Part shown: piece after piece, positions 15,460 through 57,250 of the stretch
Layout: the number at the start of each line of letters is the position of its first letter
Numbering within the stretch: the stretch's first letter is position 1
Assembly (NCBI RefSeq): GCF_006345805.1
Contig: NC_043001.1
Span: forward strand, 61,442,001-61,506,000
Direction of reading: 5' to 3'
DNA length: 64,000 bases
Source of the DNA: Octopus sinensis
Taxonomy: Eukaryota
Notes under the pieces: model-generated
What the model was told of the DNA's origin: nothing
The model's input: the letters and a program-made list of their open reading frames with translations, nothing else
Databases searched by the model: none
Position numbers and translations under genes: made by a program

Positions 15460-18020
15460 CGTGTACTGCTATGATAAAACCTTCGGTTTCAGCCTTCAGT
15501 TCTGAGTTCTTCATCTATACATGAGGGTCTCGTTTTTTTCACTCTACATGGGTATCGGCCATGCATCGGTTTTTCTAGCCATTCTTCTGGGCTTGTTTTT
15601 TCATCTCTTCTTTAACTCTTTTAGCAAACTGGGTTACTTTCTCACTCGCCTTCATCAGTTGTTTTTAAGCTGCACAGATTCTTTTGGGTGGTTCATTCGA
15701 GCCATGGTTAGTAGTTTTCTGATCTTGGAGTCTAGCCTCTTTATTTCGCTCATTTGCCAGTTGATTATGTTAAACCTGTAAGCTACGATTGGTACTGCAA
15801 GAGTGTTAATGGCTTCTTTTTTGCAGCGTTGAGTTCAGTCTTTGTTACTAACCGTACTCTCCTGTAGTACCCTTTTCTAATCTCTTTCATTGCTGAATGT
15901 TTTATGCCGTTACTTTCGTTTATGCCAAGGTATTTATATGCTTCTTCCGGGACCAGTGCTCGAATTCTTGCCTCTGCATATACGTGGAAACTTGCAGAAC
16001 ATGCCAGTTTGCCTCTTATGAAAGTGGTTTTGGCGCATTTCTCCAGTCAAACTGCATCCTGATATCATCACTCAACTTTTTAACCCTAGCAAATAGTCCT
16101 TCTTGTTCGTCATTTTTTGAGTACATTTTCAGATCCATGTAGAACAGAGGATTCCCTTTTTTCTTCTTGATCTCATATCCCTATCCGGTATTGTTTAGCA
16201 TGGTACTTAATGGTGCCAGTGCTAAGCAGAATATTAAGGGTGACAGCGAGTCTCCTTGGAAGATACCACTTTTGATTTTGATTGGTCTACTTGTTATTGA
16301 TCCACTGGAATGGTTCAGCGTCAACGTAGTTTCCCATGTTTTCATGCTGTGCTTTATAACCTTGATGAGAGTTGGGGATACTTTGTATACTTCCATCACT
16401 TTCAGCATCCATGATTGAGGTCACTATCGAACGCCTTTTTATAGTCGATCCATGATGTGCTCAGGTTCGTTTTCCTGGTTTTGCAGTCTTCTTCAAGGAT
16501 CATTTTGTTTATCAGCAATTGGGCGTTGCATCCGTAGGTCCGACATCGACAACCTGTTTGTTCTGGTGGTAGTAGGTTGGTTTCTTCTAGTAATGTGTAT
16601 GTTCTTTCAGTGATTACAGATGTTAATATTCTATACATTGTTGGTAGACAGGTGATTGGTCTATAGTTCTTTGGGTTTTCTGTGTCATTTGTTGTGCCTT
16701 TGCTTGGATTTTTTGCTTTAGGTTTTCTTTTGCTTCATGTATTTCATTGTTTTGTTTGATTCCATGCTTTTTGCATATTTTATTGGCTTTTCTTTGGTTG
16801 ACCAGGTTTCCGTTACTTATTTCGGTCAGTATTGATAAGTTGCCTCTCATGCATTGTATATTCTTTTCTAAGTTTTCTTTCTATCTTGGTTGTCTTTTCT
16901 TCTGTTCAGCAGTTTTCTTTTTCTTTTTAGTTTAATGCCTTTGCTTCAGTAATAGATGTAGCTGTTTCATAGGCTAGTTGGTTTAGCGATGTTATATTTA
17001 GTGCTTCTATTGTTGTTGATTTTATCTCATCTATGACATTATTGCTAATTTTAATCAACTCCTTCAGGTTCTTATACAAACTGACTTTTGGTAGGGGCCC
17101 TCTGTCGGTGATGTCTTGTGCGCTTTTACCTGTTCCCACTTTCTCTGTATTTGTTCTTTTAGTTCCAAATATTTCTCCCTATCCATGTCACTGTTTCGTG
17201 CTGTTGATTGTTTTGTAGACTCTTCTATCTCATTACCCACAGAGGGTTCCTCAAATACATCATCTTCTTGGTTTTCTGTAGTCCCTGTTTCTATTATTTC
17301 ATTTGTATTTGGTGTTATAGGGTGAAACCTGTTGACTTTTTCTTTTATTTTTCCAGCTCAGTGTCTGTGAGCCACCTGTTTTTAATGGGATCTCTTCGAA
17401 CATTCCCTAACTTGTTGGGATCCATGATTAACCTTGAAGTTTGATTTTGGTGTCTATAATTGATAAGTCCTTTTTGTCCTGTTATCTTCTGATGCTGTGA
17501 CTACCACCGTGTAGTATTCTTCCATGACTAGTTTATACTCTTCCCGATTCCATTTAGTTCCACGGGTATTGCGTGTAGTATGACTTGCATCGATGGGGCT
17601 CAGGTTGAGGTTTTCCTCGGTTAAGTTGCCCGGGAGTAGGTAGAATTTGAATCAGTAAACAACTTTTTGCTCCCAGCTTGACTTCTAACTAGGGGACGTG
17701 CTCCTTGTTGACCCGTGAGACGAGCGATGCGGTATGGATTGTTTTATTGGCTTTATCCATTATTGGTTAACTACTGGGTGTATTCATGGTGATTGGCCAC
17801 ATTCTCCTTGAGTACCGGAGTGTGCGCTATGCGTATCACACACATTCCTTGTTCCGCCGCCTCAGACTTCATGCACTTAAAGGAAGGTATCCCTTCAGCC
17901 ACAACAGCACCCTAACTGCCGTTGCCCCTCACTTTGCACCACTGTCGAGTGGAGGTTCCGGGACATGGCCGTCGGCGTGCGCAACCGGCTACATGGAGTC
18001 ATAAGTGAGAGCTGAGCTTT
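15460..18020 (-). mobile_element. R4/Dong-type non-LTR retrotransposon, degenerate, with internal deletions (copy 1)
   Basis: N-terminal KWNREEYKLVMEEYY; RT motifs NYRPITCLPTMYRILT, WIDYKKAFDS, GIFQGDSLSPLIFCLALAPLS, FYMD(L)KMY; downstream ETEGFIIA. The clade call rests on motif recognition, and assigning 17800-18020 as its 5' UTR is tentative. Confidence 0.75.
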
Positions 18021-18109
18021 GTTGTAAACTAGTGACCATTATCCATGCTCTTGGCATGCGACAGATGGTGAACAGAAGTACTATCACTAAAAAATACCCC
18101 ATATGCCCT

Positions 18110-18223
18110 TTATATCGTGACAGTCGTTGTGCCTTTGCTTGGATTTTTTGCTTTAGGTTTTCTTTTGCTTCATGTATTTCATTGTTCTGTTTGATTCCAT
18201 GCTTTTTGCATATTTTCTTAGCT
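18110..18223 (-). mobile_element. R4/Dong copy 2, left piece
   Basis: 18126-18223 matches 16691-16788 (KICKKHGIKQNNEIHEAKENLKQKIQAKAQ) and continues RLSRY where copy 1 is deleted. Confidence 0.85.
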
Positions 18224-19197
18224 GTGTAACAGGTGTAAGGCATCTTATATTGAAGGAATATGACGAAAAAACAGCGCGCTGAGAAACGGGGGGAGGGGAG
18301 GGGGCTCGGAAAATTCCCACGATCAACCGTAGAGGATCCGAGCAATAAACCTCAACACCCGGTCGCAGGAGCGCAACAGAAACCGTCTAAATACTTCTCA
18401 TGCAATGTGTATACAACAAATATCGAGAAAAAATGCACGCTGACAAACGGGGGCGTGGGGAGGGGGCTCGGAAAATACCCACGATCAACCGTAGAGGATC
18501 CGAGCAATAAACCTCAACGCCCGGTCGCAGGAGCGCAACAGAAACCGTCTAAATACTTCTCATGCAATGTATATACAACAAATATCGAGAAAAAATGCAC
18601 GCTGACAAACGGGGGCGTGGGGAGGGGCCTCGGAAAATACCCACGATCAACCGTAGAGGATCCGAGCAATAAACCTCAACGCCCGGTCGCAGGAGCGCAA
18701 CAGAAACCGTCTAAATACTTCTCATGCAATGTGTATACAACAAATATCGAGAAAAAATGCGCGCTGACAAACGGGGGCGTGGGGAGGGGGCTCGGAAAAT
18801 ACCCACGATCAACCGTAGAGGATCCGAGCAATAAACCTCAACGCTCGGTCGCAGGAGCGCAACAGAAACCGTCTAAATACTTCTCATGCAATGTGTATAC
18901 AACAAATATCGAGAAAAAATGCGCGCTGACAAACGGGGGCGTGGGGAGGGGGCTCGGAAAATACCCACGGTCAACCGTAGAGGATCCGAGCAATAAACCT
19001 CAACACCCGGTCGCAGGAGCGCAACAGAAACCGTCTAAATACTTCTCATGCAATGTGTATACAACAAATATCGAGAAAAAATGCGCACTGACAAACGGGG
19101 GCGTGGGGAGGGGGCTCGGAAATACCCACTATCAACCATAGAGGATCCGAGCAATAAACCTCAAGACCCGGTCGCAGGAGCGCAACAGAAACCGTCT
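18224..19197 (+). repeat. Tandem array of 162-bp units (~5.7 units) plus a partial outer variant unit
   Basis: CTCGG recurs at 18305, 18467, 18629, 18791, 18953 and 19115. Confidence 0.97.
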
Positions 19198-19198
19198 G

Positions 19199-19750
19199 AA
19201 TGGAGATGAAGAGCCCAAGGAAGAAATAGAGGGAGGAAGAACTAAAAGAAGGACTAAAAGAACTAAAGGAAAAGCTCAAGCAGGACCAAAGGGTGAAACA
19301 GCCAGGAATAGAATTGGAACCACAAAGGATGGAAACAAACAGCGCACACGGGTGTGTAGGTTCTACCTGAGAGGTACCTGCTGGCATGGAGAGGAAGGTG
19401 CAGGCTGCCGCTTTGCACATCGGGGACCCTGCCGCAGAGACACGAAACAGATAAGAAACAAACCATCAACAAAAGGAAAAGGGATGGACCACGCACCACC
19501 TGCCCCAAAACAGAGGTACGCAAATGTGGTGCGTGCCACAAACTGCCAACATGATGTTGTTGAAAGGGCAGCTGCTGAGCAAGAATCTTTTTTGTGCATG
19601 GCACAAAAGATTGTACAGCAGCTAACCTGGCTTCATCAAACCCAAGCTCGCAGGTGGGACTACCCACAATATACAAGACCACCACAGCAAACAGACCCAA
19701 GATGGACACCGCCGGCAACAACATACACCTCACCTCGATGCTCCTACTGA
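19199..19750 (+). pseudogene. LINE ORF1 C-terminal part with a CCCH-type zinc finger
   Basis: Open from the junction: NGDEEPKEE...RVCRFYLRGTCWHGEEGAGCRFAH. No in-frame ATG before the finger. Confidence 0.65.
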
Positions 19751-22734
19751 ACATCAGAGGACTGCAAACACTCAGCAACAGGCCAAAAATCCCGTTCTTG
19801 AGAGACTTTGTTGCATGCAATCAAGCCTTATGCATAGCACTTACGGAAACGCACCTGAAACCGGACATAGCAGATGCGGAATTACACATACCACAGTATG
19901 TTGTACTACGGACCGACAGAAAAGAAAGGAGTCATGGAGGAGTTGCTATGTACATCCGTGAGGACCTCACACCCCAGGTCCTTTTGTCATACTCAAACTC
20001 GGTGTGTGACACACTAATTGTACATATAAGGCAACTTGATGTAGCTGTGTGTGCTACATATCGCCCTCCAGATGCTCCAAGCCATGTAGGCAAGTTTGAA
20101 GACTGCCTTATAAAAATAGAAGAAGTTCTAATCACATTAGAACAACACATAAGTGTACTTCTTATGGGAGACTTCAATCTACCCAATGTCAGATGGCCCG
20201 AGGGTCTTTCTCTCCCAGGAATGACAAGATGTGAACGAGGACAGGCGAGGTCCCTCCTGAACCTCATCAACACCCTGTACATGGAGCAAGTAATACTCCA
20301 ACCAACCAGGGCAGGTAACACACTGGATCTCTGCTTCACAAATAATATGGATCTCATCCATAATGTGAAAGTGACATCGACACTACTCTCGGATCACAAC
20401 ATGGTAGAGCTGACCATGTACGGGCCAAAAGAGAGCACGGACATGCAGCCTACAAGAAAACCTCAGAATCTTTCCAGCTTGAACTACCATAAGGCAAACT
20501 GGAAGCAAATTGAGAAAGAGATCCTCAAACAAAACTGGCCTGAATGTCTCTCCTCAACAGACATCGACGTGAAACTTCAACAATTCATGTCTGTAATGCA
20601 AGCCATATGCTACAAATGTGTCCCAGAGAGAAAGGCCACTGTACACAAGAACAAAATCCCCAGAGAGAGAAAAATTTTAATGAGACGGCGTACAAAAATT
20701 TCAAATCGCCTAAACAAACAAATTGAAAGCAGTGAAAAGTCCCGCCAGAAAATAAAACTGTTGGAAATTGAAAAATGTCTGCAACTCTCCCATGAAAAGG
20801 AAAGAGCAGACAAAGAAACCTGGGCTATAGACAACATAAAATCTAACCCCAGAGCTTTCTACAGGTATGCCAAAGAAACAGCTACGGTGCGCTGTAGGAT
20901 AGGGCCACTCCTTGACAAGGATGGCACACTCACAGGAAAACCAATGAGGGTAAGTGAAATACTGAATGAGTAATTCAAGAGTGTTTTCACTCCACCCCTT
21001 GGGCATTTCCAAATCACCAATCCAACTGACTTCTTTACCACTGCAGATATAAAATCAGAGGCGGCGACGATAAATTACATCGATATAAAGGAAGACGATG
21101 TAATAAAGGCTATAGATGAAATGAAAACAGACTCAGCTACTGGCCCCGATGGATTCCCGGCAATCCTCCTAAAAGTATGTAAGAGAGTCCTAGCAAGACC
21201 ACTGCAGTTCCTCTTTCAGAGCTTCCTTGCAGCTGGCAAACTTCCAAGAAATCTGAAGGGAGGTAAAATATGCCCTATTCATAAAGGAGGTAGCAGAGCG
21301 GAGGCCAAGAACTACAGACCTATCTCTCTCACCTCACACATCAGCAAGGTCATGGAACGAATAGTCAGAAGGAAACTGATCACCTTCCTTGAAGAAAATG
21401 ACTTGCTGCCCGACACCCAACATGGTTTCCGACCAGGGAGAAGCTGTTTAACTCAACTCCTACAACACTATGACTGGGTGCTGAAACGACTGCTCAACCA
21501 CTCAAATGTGGAAGTGATATATCTCGACTTTGCAAAGGCCTTTGATAAAGTCGATCATGAAATGATATGTCACAAACTGCGTGATCTCAACATAGTTGGA
21601 AAACTGGGAGAATGGCTTCATGACTTTCTGAAAGATAGAAGTCAGGTGGTAGTAGAATGGCTTCATGACTTTCTGAAAGATAGAAGTCAGGTGGTAGTAG
21701 CCACTTCCATTAACACGCAAATAGTGAGCGGTGTTCCGCAGGGCACTGTTTTGGGACCACTACTGTTCATAATGTCCCTCTCAGACATGCCCTCAGCCAC
21801 GCAGAGAGCCACGATCACAAGTTATGCAGATAATACAAAAGTTTCACAGGCAATACAGAACCCTGAGGACACTAAACGCCTGCAATGTGAGCTGGACAAA
21901 ATATACAAGTGGGCTGAAAAGAATAGCATGCAGTTCAATGCTGAAAAGTTTCAAGCTTTATACTATCAGCATGCAAAACTAAATGCAATACCCAATGAAT
22001 ACACTGGACCCGGAGGAATTGCAATCCCAGAGGCACAATCAGTGCGTGACCTGGGTATTTACATGAATGATGACGCAACCTTTCGTGTACATGTTGCTAA
22101 ATTGGGAATGAAATGTAGACGACTGGCCAGATGGATTCTCAGAACCTTTAGAACAAGAGAACAAGAAACCATGATGGTCCTCTGGAGGACACTTGTCCTA
22201 AGCCACTTTGACTATTGCTCTCAGTTATGGTCACCATCCAGTGTCAAGTTGATCACAGAACTTGAGGCGATCCAACGTAGCTACACGAAGAAGATAGCCT
22301 CTATGCAGAATATAAGCTACTGGGAAAGACTCAAGAGATTAAAACTCTATTCCTTGGAGCGTAGGCGAGAAAGATATGCCATAATATACATCTGGAAGAT
22401 CCAGGAGCGACTTATCCCAAACTTTGGCATCGAGAGTTACACAAATGCCAGAACTGGGCGCCACTGCGTGGTGCCTAGGACACCAAATTTGCCATCAAGA
22501 TGTAGGACAAGATACTGTGATAGCCTGGGCTTCCGAGGCCCACAGCTCTTCAATATCCTCCCGAAGAACCTAAGAGACCTGCATGGGGTGGATGCAGATG
22601 TCTTTAAAATGAAACTGGATCTCTTCCTGTCAGGTATCCCAGATGAAGCAACTTCACGGCAGGAGGTGCAGATGAGGGCAGCTGCATCGAACTCTCTCAT
22701 GCACCAAATGGCAGTTGCTAAAACGCTGTCGTGA
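19594..22734 (+). pseudogene. LINE ORF2 (APE endonuclease + reverse transcriptase) with a single in-frame TAA at 20971-20973
   Basis: NIRGL, LTETHL, GGVAMY, YRPP, MGDFN, LDLCF, SDH; GPDG, NYRPISL, QHGFRPGRSC, DFAKAFDKV, SGVPQGTVLGPLLF, YADN. The two listed ORFs share a frame. Confidence 0.92.
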
Positions 22735-22798
22735 AAACCATGTAGCAACACCAAATGGCGGTACCCCAGCATGGCCACAGCTCATGAGCTGAAACTAG

Positions 22799-22832
<34 letters not shown>

Positions 22833-22843
22833 ATATATATAGA

Positions 22844-23211
22844 CTAGCAGTATCGCCCGGCGTTGCTCGGGTTTGTAAGGGAAATAACTATATAAGCATT
22901 TTTAGAGATGTAAAGCCATCTCAATATGGTTAACCGCAAAGAGGGGGGGAGTGTTACTGTAGCTTTTTACGTTCTCTGAGATTTAATAATACATTTTTAG
23001 AGAGTTACTTCCCTTATGCAAAAATGCGTTGAAAATGGGGGAAATTGATGGTAAATTTTTCTTTAAATCGTAGACGCATCGTAGGGCTCGATATGAATCA
23101 CGACTATAAGATACCCGGTTTTGGTTACACTGCACCGCAAAATGTGGAAGTAGTTAGGAATCTAAATCGTAGGAGACAGATAGCACACAACCTCACTTTT
23201 ATATATAAAGA
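22844..23211 (-). mobile_element. Non-autonomous Helitron, family A
   Basis: CTAG and hairpin at 22844-22872; TC 5' end at 23211; homologous to the other two copies. Confidence 0.88.
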
Positions 23212-24415
23212 CAAGCTGAAGGTAACCCGCTCTACGCGCGGGTAAGAGTGTGGGTGTTACTTTCAGTTGCTTCCTTTCAGCACGTAAAAAGCACCATCCG
23301 AACGTGGCCGATTGCAGCACCGCCTTGACTTGCTTCTCTGCCGGTGGCACGTAAAAAGCACCAACCGATCGTTCCCATTGCGAGCCCCCCTGGCACCAGT
23401 GCTGGCGGCACGAAAAAAGCACTCACTACACTCACAGAGTGGTTGGCGTTAGGAAGGTCATCTACCTGTAGAAACACTGCCAGATCAGACTGGAGCCTGG
23501 TGCAGCCTCCTGGCTTCCGAAACCCCGGTCACACTGCCCAACCCGTGCTAGCACGGAAAACGGACGTTAAACGATGATGATGATGATGATTCTCCGTATT
23601 TGTTTCTCTCTCCTTTCTTTCTCACTTTCCCACTCTCTTACTTTTCTTTTCTCTCGGACTCTCCCTCGCTTTCTCTTACTCTCTATCTTTATCTATCTCT
23701 CTCCCATTTATAAACAACAGAAGATCTTGAGTAAGTTGAGAAATAAAATATTTAGAAAGATCAATCAGAAATATGAGGCAGTGGCAATGGAAAGGTCTGC
23801 TTCAGGGCAGACAGCAAAACGCTAACATTTAAAAAGGGACAGACGAACTTGCGAGCTGAATAAAAATAATAAAATATTGGAAACCAAAGTTTGAAGGAAT
23901 AGAATCTGAGGATAGTAGAGTCACCATGGCTGGCATTTGTTAACGACGGACAGCAACGTAGTGACAGTTTAACGGCTGGCGTAAAATTTTAAACTTGATG
24001 TAAAAGAAAATTCGTAAACACCAAGTTTTGAAGTGATTCTTTCTCACGACAGTAGACTCACCATTGCAAGCATTCAAAACTTCTTTATCATGGACGGCAA
24101 CACATTGACGATTAAAAGGCTGGCGCAAATTTTTTAGCTTGATGTAACAGAGAATTCCTAAACACCCGCTCCTTGAAATTTTAATCCCCTTCCAGCCCCA
24201 TTTAGACCCCTTTTCACATTTTGGTTAATATAACCCGATTTCATTCGGGTCTACTGGGGCCACATTTTATAAGATGAGGAATTTTGTCCTGGAGGTGACG
24301 CCTTTCATTTGAGGAACAAAATAGTTGTCATGCAAACTTGTCAGCACCTTTAACATAGGTGTGCATATTTTCAGCTGAATCGACCGACTACGTAATGCAC
24401 ACATTATATATATAT
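23212..24415 (-). mobile_element. Putative non-autonomous Helitron, family B
   Basis: Minus-strand 3' end has hairpin ACCCGCGCGTAGAGCGGGT followed by CTTG; the interior is repeated at 1-313; the 5' end is lost in (TA)n and its position is approximate. Confidence 0.55.
23281..23590 (+). mobile_element. 5'-truncated SINE with (GAT)n tail, nested in Helitron B
   Basis: Repeated GCACGTAAAAAGCAC units, GGTTGGCGTTAGGAAGG core, and CGGACGTTAAACGATGATGAT tail. Confidence 0.75.
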
Positions 24416-24418
24416 ATT

Positions 24419-24460
<42 letters not shown>

Positions 24461-24603
24461 CACGCATTTTATATACAAATGTATACAAATGAGATATATA
24501 TCTGTATAAATTAAATTAGAGATAAAACCACTAATAGGCAAATCAAACAGTGAAAAACCAAAAACAAAAACATAAAAAAAGAAAATATAACATAGAAAAT
24601 ATA

Positions 24604-25006
24604 TCTATATATATAAAACTGTAGTTGTGTGAGTGTCTGTCCCCTTCGATTTAGATTCCTAACTACTCCCACATTTTGCGGTGCAGTGTAACCAAAACCG
24701 GGTATCTTATAGTCGTGATTCATATCGAGCCCTTCTGGGTATTAGCGCGCGTCTACGACGAGTCTACGATTTAAAAAAATATTTACCATCATTTTTTATT
24801 CCATTTTAATGCATTTTTCGCTATTATATAAGGGAAGTAACTCTCTAAAAATGTCTACGATGAGTCAACGATTTAAAAAAAAATTACTATCATTTTTTAT
24901 TCCATTTTTAATGCATTTTTTGCTTTTTCTTTTGCTATAACTCACTAAAAATGCTTATATAGTTATTTCCCTTACAAACCCGAGCAACGCCGGGCGATAC
25001 TGCTAG
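24604..25006 (+). mobile_element. Non-autonomous Helitron, family A
   Basis: A|TCTATATATATAAAA...CCCGAGCAACGCCGGG-CGATACTG-CTAG|T. Confidence 0.92.
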
Positions 25007-25299
25007 TAAAATATAAAATTGAAAACTTTAAATTATTTAAATTGAAAATAAAATTTATTAAATTATATTTATAATTTGTTTAAAAATATACATAACTATG
25101 AAAAAGTATGAAAAAGTTTAATATACATAAATACAGATATATACACTTTGTATATATACATTATATATACATATTTATATATAGAACACACACACACACA
25201 CACATACATTATATATACATATTTATATATAGAACACACACACACACATACATTATATATACATATTTATATATAGAACACACACACACACACATATAT

Positions 25300-25700
25300 A
25301 AATGAACGCAAGAATATCTGATTCATAATATTTGTTCTCATGCTCGTGTGTTGTTTGTTGGTGACAAACATATACTTAAAAGAACGCCGCCGAAGTGATA
25401 GGAAGGTAGGAAACAGAGTCAGTGAAAAAAAAAGGAAATAGCGATAGTGACAGATACTTTAAATAACGGTAGTGGACTTCTGAAAGTTATGAAGGGGAGT
25501 AAGAGAGGGAAAGGAGGAAATAGGGTGAGTGAGGAAGATGGGCCCTAGCAACCACACCTTTTAAGATAGCGATTTCTAAGGTAGCCCACGAGCATCGTCA
25601 CCTCATTCTACATGTCCCTGGAGCGAATCGGACGGGATGTAGTGGCATTGAAAGCGATCCAAGCGGTAAAAACGCATTTCAGTTTTATATATAGAGAAGA
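25300..25700 (-). mobile_element. Possible third Helitron family, 5' end only
   Basis: Minus strand begins A|TCTTCTCTATATATAAAA, like family A; no 3' hairpin or CTAG found, so the left boundary is uncertain. Confidence 0.4.
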
Positions 25701-25970
25701 TATATCCCCCTCAAGCCGGCTATTTTCATGCTAGAAATAACAGCCAAATCTCACTAAACTGCGGTAACACAATGAAATGAATTGTGTAATGAATCTACTC
25801 ACCTTTCTGCAAATATTTCTTTCGGAGTATTTTCCCCACATCAATATGAAATTAAGGTTTTTTTTTTATTATTTTATTTGAAAGTTACAAAAAAATATGA
25901 GTTTTGTCGAGAAGTGTGTTCGGGGAAACAGCGTTGGCAGGGTTTAGAAGAGATGTGTTCGAGAAAGAGT

Positions 25971-26169
25971 GGATGGCTGTGTGGTAAGTAGCTTCCTCAC
26001 CAACCACATGGTTCCGGGTTCAGTCCCACTGCGTGGTACCTTGGTCAAGTGTCTTCTACTATAGCCTCGAGCCAGCAAAAGCCTTGTGAGTGGGTTTGGT
26101 AGACGGAACCTTTAAGAAGCCCGTCGTATATATGTATATATATGTGTGCGTGTGTTTGTCCACCCAACA
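25971..26169 (+). mobile_element. 3'-truncated SINE (same family as 55608-56033)
   Basis: GGCTGTGTGGTAAGTAGCTT...GGTTCAGTCCCACTGCGTGG...; breaks off at the array. Confidence 0.85.
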
Positions 26170-27384
26170 ATATTTGTTGTATACACATTGCATGAAAAGT
26201 ATTTAGACGGTTTCTGTTGCGCTCCTGCGACCGGGCGTTGAGATTTATTGCTCGGATCCTCTACGGTTGATCGTGGGTATTTTCCGAGCCCCCTCCCCAC
26301 GCCCCAGTTTGTCAGCGTGCATTTTTTCTCGATATTTGTTGTATACACATTGCATGAGAAGTATTTAGACGGTTTCTGTTGCGCTCCTGCGACCGGGCGT
26401 TGAGGTTTATTGCTCGGATCCTCTACGGTTGATCGTGGGTATTTTCCGAGCCCCCTCCCCACGCCCCCGTTTGTCAGCGTGCATTTTTTCTCGATATCTG
26501 TTGTATACACATTGCATGAGAAGTATTTAGACGGTTTCTGTTGCGCTCCTGCGACCGGGCGTTGAGGTTTATTGCTCGGATCCTCTACGGTTGATCGTGG
26601 GTATTTTCTGAGCCCCCTCCCCACGCCCCCGTTTGTCAGCGTGCATTTTTTCTCGATATTTGTTGTATACACATTGCATGAGAAGTATTTAGACGGTTTC
26701 TGTTGCGCTCCTGCGACCGGGCGTTGATGTTTATTGCTCGGATCCTCTACAGTTGATCGTGGGTATTTTCCGAGCCCCCTCCCCACGCCCCCGTTTGTCA
26801 GCGTGCATTTTTTCTCGATATCTGTTGTATACACATTGCATGAGAAGTATTTAGACGGTTTCTGTTGCGCTCCTGCGACCGGGCGTTGAGGTTTATTGCT
26901 CGGATCCTCTACGGTTGATCGTGGGTATTTTCCGAGCCCCCTCCCCACGCCCCAGTTTGTCAGCGTGCATTTTTTCTCGATATTTGTTGTATACACATTG
27001 CATGAGAAGTATTTAGACGGTTTCTGTTGCGCTCCTGCGACCGGGTGTTGAGGTTTATTGCTCGGTTTATTACTCGGTTTATTGATCGTGGGAATTTTCC
27101 GAGCCCTCTCCCCACCCCCCGTTTGTCAGCGCGCTTTTTTTTTCGTCATTTTCCTTCAATATACGATGCCTTACACCTGTTACACATATTTTTTTCCATT
27201 TTTGCCACTTGGGCGCGGATCCTCTACGGTTGATCGTGGGAATTTTCCGAGCCCCTTCCCCACCCCCCGTTTCTCAGCGCGCTTTTTTTTTTTGTCATTT
27301 TCCTTCAATATACGTTGCCTTACATCTGTTACACATATTTTTTTCCATTTTTGCCACCTGGGCGTGGATCTATATATTAACCTC
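26170..27384 (-). repeat. Tandem array: six 162-bp units plus two ~150-bp outer variant units, inverted relative to 18224-19197
   Basis: TAT(T/C)TGTTGTATACAC at 26171, 26333, 26495, 26657, 26819 and 26981; outer variant motif at ~27186 and ~27336. Confidence 0.97.
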
Positions 27385-27795
27385 ATTTTCTAAGTTTTCT
27401 TTCTATCTTGGTTGTATCTTCTTCTGTTCAGCAGTTTTCTTTTTCTTTTTAGTTTTATGCCTTTGCTTCAGTAATAGCTGTAGCTGTTTCATAGGCTAGT
27501 TGGTTTAGCGATGTTATATTTAGTGCTTCTATCGTTGTTGATTTTATCTCATCTATGACATTATTGCTAATTTTAATCAACTCCTTCAGGTTCTTATACA
27601 AACTGACCTTTGGTAAGAGCTCCCTGTGGTGTCTATGCTTTGACCTGTTCTCATATTCTCTGTATTTGTTCTTTTAGTTCCAAATATTTCTCCCTATCCA
27701 TGTCACTGTTTCGTGCTGTTGATTGTTTTGTAGGCTCTTCTATCTCATTACCCACAGAAGGTTCCTCAAATACATCATCTTCTTGGTTTTCTGTA
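27385..27795 (-). mobile_element. R4/Dong copy 2, right piece
   Basis: Matches 16863-17280 closely. Confidence 0.88.
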
Positions 27796-27803
27796 ATCCC
27801 TTA

Positions 27804-27805
<2 letters not shown>

Positions 27806-27893
<88 letters not shown>

Positions 27894-56036: not shown

Positions 56037-57250
<1,214 letters not shown>

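Follow-up and report, generated by a model that had tools for sequence, protein, structure and literature searches.

Merlin elements are DNA transposons whose terminal inverted repeats (TIRs) begin with 5'-GG, whose insertions are flanked by duplicated target sites of 8 or 9 bp (TSDs) and whose transposase carries the DDE_Tnp_IS1595 domain (PMC8101967). Two of the zebrafish elements listed in the S1 Table of that study have strongly repetitive ends: the non-autonomous Merlin-N5_DR, with 1000-bp TIRs containing arrays of a 113-bp unit (5.2 copies) mirrored at both ends, and Merlin-2_DR, which exceeds 13 kb and has a 79-bp unit arrayed close to each end (12.5 and 9.7 copies). The same work noted tandem repeats in Merlins and proposed that these elements spread proto-satellites, and it counted 191 Merlin-like proteins in O. 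bimaculoides (PMC8101967). For O. vulgaris, two recently active Merlin families were reported, with 11 insertions and 28,998 bp (PMC13282606). In other DNA transposons, the TIRs of Galileo lengthen by the expansion of tandem repeats and the recruitment of internal sequence (PMC3573991, PMC4168063), and the TIR repeats of Tetris grow into satellite-like arrays of kilobase size, by which satellites are seeded (PMC4079207).

In this work, we describe a block found in a stretch of 64,000 nucleotides from Octopus sinensis (hereafter, the window). Based on our data, the block is very probably a non-autonomous Merlin with repetitive TIRs of kilobase size, in which a truncated CR1-like LINE and Helitron-like DNA have taken the place of the transposase gene, and whose movement as a unit was likely effected by the transposase of intact relatives. 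The coordinates of its parts are given in table 1.

Table 1. Parts of the composite Merlin block and of the LINE that it interrupts (positions of the window).
Feature	Position	Strand	Evidence and remarks
5' part (~1.4 kb) of an R4/Dong-like LINE	16682..18110	-	Aligns without a break to other copies as far as ~18107
Piece of the host LINE to the left of the insertion	18111..18223	-	Flank alignment
Left arm (TIR)	18224..19201	+	Truncated 149-type unit, then 5.8 x 162-bp units
5'-truncated CR1-like LINE	19202..22830	+	Matches to Exo_endo_phos and RVT_1; occupies the place of the transposase gene of relatives
(TA)n and small Helitron-like repeat, part of the Merlin backbone	22831..23211	-	96.8% to L061 and 94.9% to L063/L064, same position
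Helitron-like cargo of 2.5 kb, abundant family	23212..25700	-	Starts with TC at 25697 and ends with a hairpin and CTTG; target A|T; shared with the C13 copy
Conserved inner backbone adjoining the right arm	25701..26169	+	99.8% to the transposase-bearing L061, 97.6% to L063/L064
Right arm (TIR)	26170..27382	-	~6 units of 162 bp and two of 149 bp, with the intact terminus 5'-GGTTAATAT
Probable remaining copy of the 8-bp TSD	27383..27390	+	LINE sequence starts again at 27383; TSDs of the family measure 8 bp
Piece of the host LINE to the right of the insertion	27383..27811	-	Flank alignment; right piece against genome matches

The two arms, 978 bp long on the left and 1213 bp on the right, are inverted copies of each other (95.9% identity across 987 bp). 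The inverted 162-bp arrays recognized by the original prediction were confirmed at 18257-19201 (5.8 copies with 96% matches) and, with 6.0 copies, at 26170-27145, and a 149-bp unit repeated 1.9 times at 27082-27370 forms the outer part of the right arm. No match to transposase sequence was found in the window copy, which is thus non-autonomous, as had been proposed together with the long and internally repetitive TIRs. The loop is no random sequence, since about 850 bp belong to the conserved family backbone. Two open frames of 295 and 337 aa running through the arrays were rejected as genes and attributed to the 54-codon length of the unit; the 295-aa frame has no Pfam match, and the frame is disrupted by units of 161 and 163 bp. 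The window also contains other inverted pairs, namely one of 1.1 kb at 350-1470 and 1747-2885 (96.7% alike, with 276 bp in between) and two smaller ones at 13429-13561/14609-14741 (99%) and 61301-61519/62662-62880 (81%).

The right end of the block has 138 matches in its own genome (40 scored of 261 candidates). GGTTAA opens all 27 ends compared. Since similarity among copies starts at GGTTAATAT (window position 27382) while the two bases outside vary, being GA in 2 of the 27 ends, we place the true terminus at 27382 and assign the GA to the host; the GAG terminus earlier suggested at 27384 is replaced by 5'-GGTTAATAT. The exact 23-base terminal pattern occurs 115 times in the genome (control, 0), and the first 100 of these occurrences include 29 pairs that face inward and span 119-3232 bp; pairs facing outward or in the same direction did not occur within 15 kb. 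The recurrence of the arrays elsewhere as inverted pairs, which the original prediction had proposed to check, is thus supported, and the GAG...CTC ends and 4-bp TSDs named along with it are not.

Duplications of 2-12 bp were scored at 24 paired loci. An exact 8-bp TSD was present in 16 of them, an 8-bp TSD with one mismatch in one, and none in seven, the chance of an exact 8-bp match being about 3e-5 per locus. No exact 4-bp duplication was found at any of these 24 loci, all 24 had at least four mismatches at 9 bp, and a near 7-bp match (one mismatch) was seen in one (L094). When L009, L020, L006, L139, L183 and L188-L190 are added, the 32 paired loci comprise 20 with an exact 8-bp TSD, 2 with one mismatch and 10 with none. 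L065 and L066 represent one duplicated insertion, because they have common flanks. At two loci, an inverted duplication of the flank stands in place of the TSD: 188 bp of host DNA around the element in L142:3067-4346, and about 1.1 kb, beyond which a third arm follows, in L084:3044-6983. Aberrant transposition or fold-back repair are possible sources of these duplications.

Pairs of ends enclosing a transposase, which the original prediction had indicated as worth searching for, exist in this genome: L065, L066 and L139 all have a perfect 8-bp TSD and enclose a transposase of the Merlin/IS1595 type (PF12762). L065 and L066 are 3.2 kb long; their TIRs measure about 1.04 kb, and their transposase is open over 316 residues. 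L139 is 3.5 kb long, with a TIR of 1.3 kb, and the 5' part of its gene is out of frame. A Pfam scan of three transposases matched PF12762 only (E=6e-15 in L065), with no Zn_Tnp_IS1595 and no THAP domain, and the transposase alignment contains what we take to be the D, D and E blocks. Four full-length open copies of the cognate gene, 91-100% identical, were found, and the 150 scored PF12762 matches of the genome include several located beside family ends. Relatives of the transposase in the databases reach at most 66% identity (99 matches), the best named ones being ISXO2-like proteins of molluscs and crustaceans. Fragments of the transposase, 82-93% identical to L061, also form a cluster with one orientation and without arms in L180-L182 (G000:C29:13.02-13.05 Mb).

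We also found a sister family, with a transposase 65% identical, arms about 70% similar and likewise repetitive, and TIRs starting with GGTTAATATAG. The perfect 8-bp TSD is present in both complete copies examined, L186:2014-4917 and L187:2756-5659, which are 2,904 bp long, with internally repetitive TIRs of 450 bp and open 316-aa frames; L185 displays one end. A 1,922-bp relative of this family, without TSD, is nested in the composite on C13 described below (L078:974-2895). Taken together, the GG ends, the 8-bp TSDs and the enclosed PF12762 gene, all of them repeated in the sister family, identify the mover, as far as sequence can tell, as Merlin, and the action of its transposase on GGTTAATAT-type ends is putative.

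The interior of the block is best understood from the relatives L061 and L063/L064, in which an arm is followed by the transposase, (TA)n, the small Helitron-like repeat, the inner block and the other arm. Window segments 22843-23211 and 25712-26130 are 95-99.8% identical to these relatives, and L063/L064 have the window backbone with a transposase fragment at the place of the CR1. Thus, the CR1 stands where the lost transposase gene used to be, a point overlooked by the original prediction. This LINE, which we take to belong to the CR1 clade from its motifs, comprises the end of ORF1, the endonuclease and the RT, with one stop in between, and an (ATCA)n tail. Comparison with free CR1 copies revealed a 2-bp (AT) microhomology at its join with the left arm. 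None of the eight free CR1 loci carries arm sequence, and native CR1 upstream of the junction is visible in four of them, so that the arrays do not always sit 5' of CR1, as an alternative first considered would have had it, and the view of the array as tandem 5' UTR monomers of CR1 was rejected. A 45-bp in-frame tandem duplication is present in the RT region of the LINE (21609-21700), and a second and more distant CR1-like piece is found at 56136-57134 (74% to 21697-22697).

Helitrons are expected to have a CTRR 3' end. The small Helitron-like repeat has a TC start and a hairpin followed by a CTAG end, whereas the 2.5-kb cargo, whose ends are otherwise Helitron-like, has CTTG instead. The family of the latter has 1301 candidates in the genome, 40 of which were scored; at three of 18 other loci compared (L112, L115 and L119), its copies of 2.5-3 kb are arranged head to tail.

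The junction between arm and CR1 was found at five places: in the window, on C13, on C9 and twice on C9520. They correspond to three independent sites, because both C9520 places have the flank of C9. The C13 copy, located on another chromosome-scale contig, has an intact left tip, a CR1 lacking 700 bp, both Helitron-like pieces and the inner block, in which a 1.9-kb insertion of the sister family is lodged; its right arm ends after two inner units. Its whole cargo, the 2.5-kb element included, is 96-98% identical to that of the window; it retains parts of both arms and has its own indels. The C9 copy also has an intact left tip, and stops within the CR1. Because both copies keep intact left tips, which meet unrelated flanks exactly at GGTT, the composite of LINE and Helitron-like DNA likely jumped between chromosomes as a unit, reaching three sites. 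A right terminus was not found in the ~7-10 kb beyond the truncations on C13 and C9, and none of the copies at the three sites has both termini, hence no TSD pair is available for the composite. Moreover, a jump of 9 kb is an extrapolation, since the largest TSD-flanked family member found measures 3.5 kb.

The three cargo CR1s differ from each other by 1.4-1.9%, compared with 2.3-3.3% from five free copies; only one derived site unites them, and the tree is nearly star-like. If the octopus calibration in which a JC distance of 0.09 equals 25 My (PMC13282606) applies, the composite copies split roughly 2-3 My ago.

Transposition of the composite is not the only way to account for these copies. 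The composite might be Merlin-derived and built only once, in place, with the remaining copies produced by segmental duplication or repair-associated copying. We consider this unlikely, even if all three composite copies are truncated at one end and segmental duplicates or haplotigs are common, as the shared flanks of C9 and the two C9520 places, of L065/L066 and of L063/L064 attest: on C13 and C9, homology breaks off right at the tip of the TIR, beyond which the flanks are unrelated, and the window copy splits a LINE into two consecutive halves. Still less probable is that the two arms are independent insertions facing each other by chance, or that they were brought together by an assembly artefact. 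Such an origin would agree with the 42 of the first 100 exact termini that have no exact partner within 15 kb, and with the left junction at 18223: the contigs of five sequencing runs cover flank and arm in separate pieces, none of those examined (8 of 8 in one comparison, 32 of 216 in another) bridges it, and three raw-read runs sampled at about 3 in 100 gave no reads, too thin a sample to serve as a test. Nevertheless, a second copy of this interior, likewise with both arms, lies on a different contig of chromosome scale and differs from the window copy by about 2% and by indels of its own, the backbone is that of L063/L064, the two arms have a near-private variant in common, and the window contains no N.

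The identity of the mover also has to be weighed against other superfamilies. Sola2 and Sola3 are characterized by GAG/GRG termini and 4-bp TSDs, Mutator/FB elements by TSDs of 9-11 bp and a MULE transposase, P/Galileo elements by 7-bp TSDs and a THAP-P transposase, and hAT elements by 8-bp TSDs, 5'-CA/TA termini and a hAT transposase. Mobilization by Sola, initially proposed as a possibility, gives way to Merlin, since GA lies outside the element, the termini are GG, 4-bp duplications are absent (0/24) in favor of 8-bp ones, and the enclosed gene is PF12762. Mutator/FB was rejected because none of the 24 loci comes closer than four mismatches to a 9-bp TSD and because the gene is of IS1595 type, P/Galileo on the single near 7-bp match (L094 of 24) and the missing THAP domain, and hAT, whose TSD length does fit, on the GG termini and the enclosed gene. 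It is highly improbable that the elements are mobilized by a Sola-, hAT- or Mutator-type transposase, the Merlin gene being a passenger. What speaks for a passenger is, besides the 8-bp length shared with hAT, that in L067 a terminus has a distant Merlin gene (31-33% identity) nearby, proximity being thus no safe guide by itself. Similarly, the foldback element Tetris was assigned to Mutator on TSDs of 8-10 bp (PMC4079207). However, GG ends, 8-bp TSDs and a PF12762 transposase occur together in two related families, neither 4-bp nor 9-bp TSDs were seen at the 24 loci, and all four full-length open cognate genes lie within or beside arms. We therefore retain the reading of the block as a non-autonomous Merlin.

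This Merlin sits in a LINE that presumably belongs to the R4/Dong clade, judging from its RT motifs (the RVT_1 match, E=2e-6, is below the cut-off). The left flank (18117-18223) aligns to 16682-16788 (94%) and the right flank (27386-27811) to 16864-17298 (93%), which agrees with the earlier view of the flanks as consecutive pieces of one LINE and of the block as an insertion; compared with an independent LINE copy, 72 bp of host are absent between 18223 and 27383, close to the ~74 bp first estimated. In comparison with the C13 and C9 copies, the left arm lacks about 48 bp of its tip, and one base (T) is shared at the host join. As predicted, the left tip was thus deleted together with host DNA, and this loss of tip and ~72 bp of host is the reason why no TSD is visible at the window copy. 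The partner of the putative TSD copy at the right end would have been in the deleted left junction, and the window copy has likely been immobile since the loss of its tip. The right host flank is 97% identical to the 16682-18110 stretch and at most 90% identical to the other 23 genome matches, and the interrupted piece resembles a tandem duplicate, formed locally, of this adjacent 1.43-kb LINE 5' part. An internal deletion of the first LINE copy (16682-18110) lies close to the point at which the second one is interrupted. Part of the flank is present in 20 of 24 listed public sequencing runs, where contig pieces cover it in part, and no empty site was found in the public runs.

The arms themselves appear to be dynamic. 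In the standard arm of the family, 149-type unit(s) are followed by 162-bp units, and nearly all aligned arms have a TTCCC variant at the start of the array; the CAACACCCGG variant represents the majority state and is seen in an inner left unit as well. Hence most of the mirror order of variants that had been pointed out between the window arms is standard family layout, and what stands of it is one variant common to both arms. This near-private variant, with a shorter A run, has seven exact 27-mer matches in the genome, all of them in the window element (two left and five right units); its 19-mer version has one additional match, in a diverged copy. The variant only suggests that the window arms may have exchanged sequence, because it is a change at a CpG site and the outer 149-bp units show no homogenization between the two arms. 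Across 21 paired elements compared at their terminal 95 bp, most copies are nearly identical, so that the comparison has little resolution; private variants common to both ends were found in L068, L096 and L142, and chimeric pairs in L009, L089, L092 and L093.

Unit numbers differ between composite copies, with about six in the window left arm, fewer than two on C13 and about five on C9. L065 and L139 display directly how the TIR recruits DNA from the interior: a captured Helitron-like piece plus 114 and 355 bp, respectively, from behind the gene are mirrored on both sides. At L073:537-7340, one arm has 42 unit anchors over 6.8 kb of mixed 162- and 149-type units, an array that may be called a proto-satellite, with an apparent higher-order periodicity. 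A tandem array of a common-repeat piece (window 23282-23422) lies at L144:400-2727, about 6 kb from a 760-bp family member. One could go further and see in the family a foldback engine whose arms copy each other and absorb the interior, such as a Helitron piece and the end of the element's own gene, ferry 9-kb LINE-bearing cargoes between chromosomes, grow multi-kilobase proto-satellites and aberrantly duplicate flanks in inverted orientation; we put this forward tentatively, as a reading slightly more apt to fail than to hold.

The following course of events would account for the block. The ancestral layout would have been the one displayed by the relatives (arm, transposase, small Helitron, inner block, arm). 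Behind the gene, the (TA)n may have received a CR1 insertion, whose ORF1 would then have been joined to the left arm through microhomology, with loss of the gene. The 2.5-kb Helitron-like element, which two copies carry in their backbone at an A|T site, would have been added to it, and the composite probably transposed at least twice, giving three sites. Each copy then decayed in its own way, as their different truncations indicate, the one in the window losing its left tip. Slippage or unequal exchange may have altered the number of units, and the arms probably exchanged sequence.

In comparison with known systems, the zebrafish Merlin-N5_DR, Merlin-2_DR and Merlin-1_DR of Repbase are the nearest, with the same GG termini, 8-bp TSD and DDE_Tnp_IS1595 in their listed descriptions. 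The octopus units, of 149 and 162 bp, differ from theirs, a distinction drawn from these descriptions and not from sequence. In the octopus composite, moreover, a LINE and Helitron-like DNA replace the gene, an arrangement common to the copies at three sites. Merlin TIRs were first described as 24-462 bp long, compared with 978 and 1213 bp in the window and 1.0-1.3 kb in L065/L139, but this range does not define the superfamily, because Merlins with 1000-bp TIRs are listed in Repbase. For the same reason no general concept is changed by our results, long mirrored tandem TIRs being already listed for Merlin. As far as they treat octopus Merlins, PMC8101967 and PMC13282606 describe neither TIR structure nor cargo, and the family may already be contained in the repeat libraries of O. 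bimaculoides or O. vulgaris. Our search, confined to the literature, yielded no description of the octopus family or of a LINE-carrying Merlin.

Our results correct the annotation of the block to Merlin, instead of Sola or an unclassified satellite. The two sister families have intact and recently inserted autonomous copies, which makes end recognition in Merlin testable; the 149-bp repeats, for example, may be extra transposase-binding sites that would let long cargoes move. The likeness to Galileo lies in the mirrored Helitron-like piece and gene-adjacent DNA of L065/L139, while Galileo has a P-type enzyme and the octopus family an IS1595-type transposase, GG ends and 8-bp TSDs. With Tetris and FB it shares a non-autonomous foldback layout and growing TIR arrays, of which L073 is the example here; Tetris, tentatively placed in Mutator, has no known transposase in its description (PMC4079207), in contrast to the cognate Merlin transposase present in the octopus. 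After Mutator-like and P elements, Merlin is thus a third superfamily in which the foldback structure can be followed stepwise, starting with an intact element and ending with a derivative loaded with cargo. Elements of this design were already known in other animals, and the block is best described as a Merlin with Galileo-like arm dynamics.
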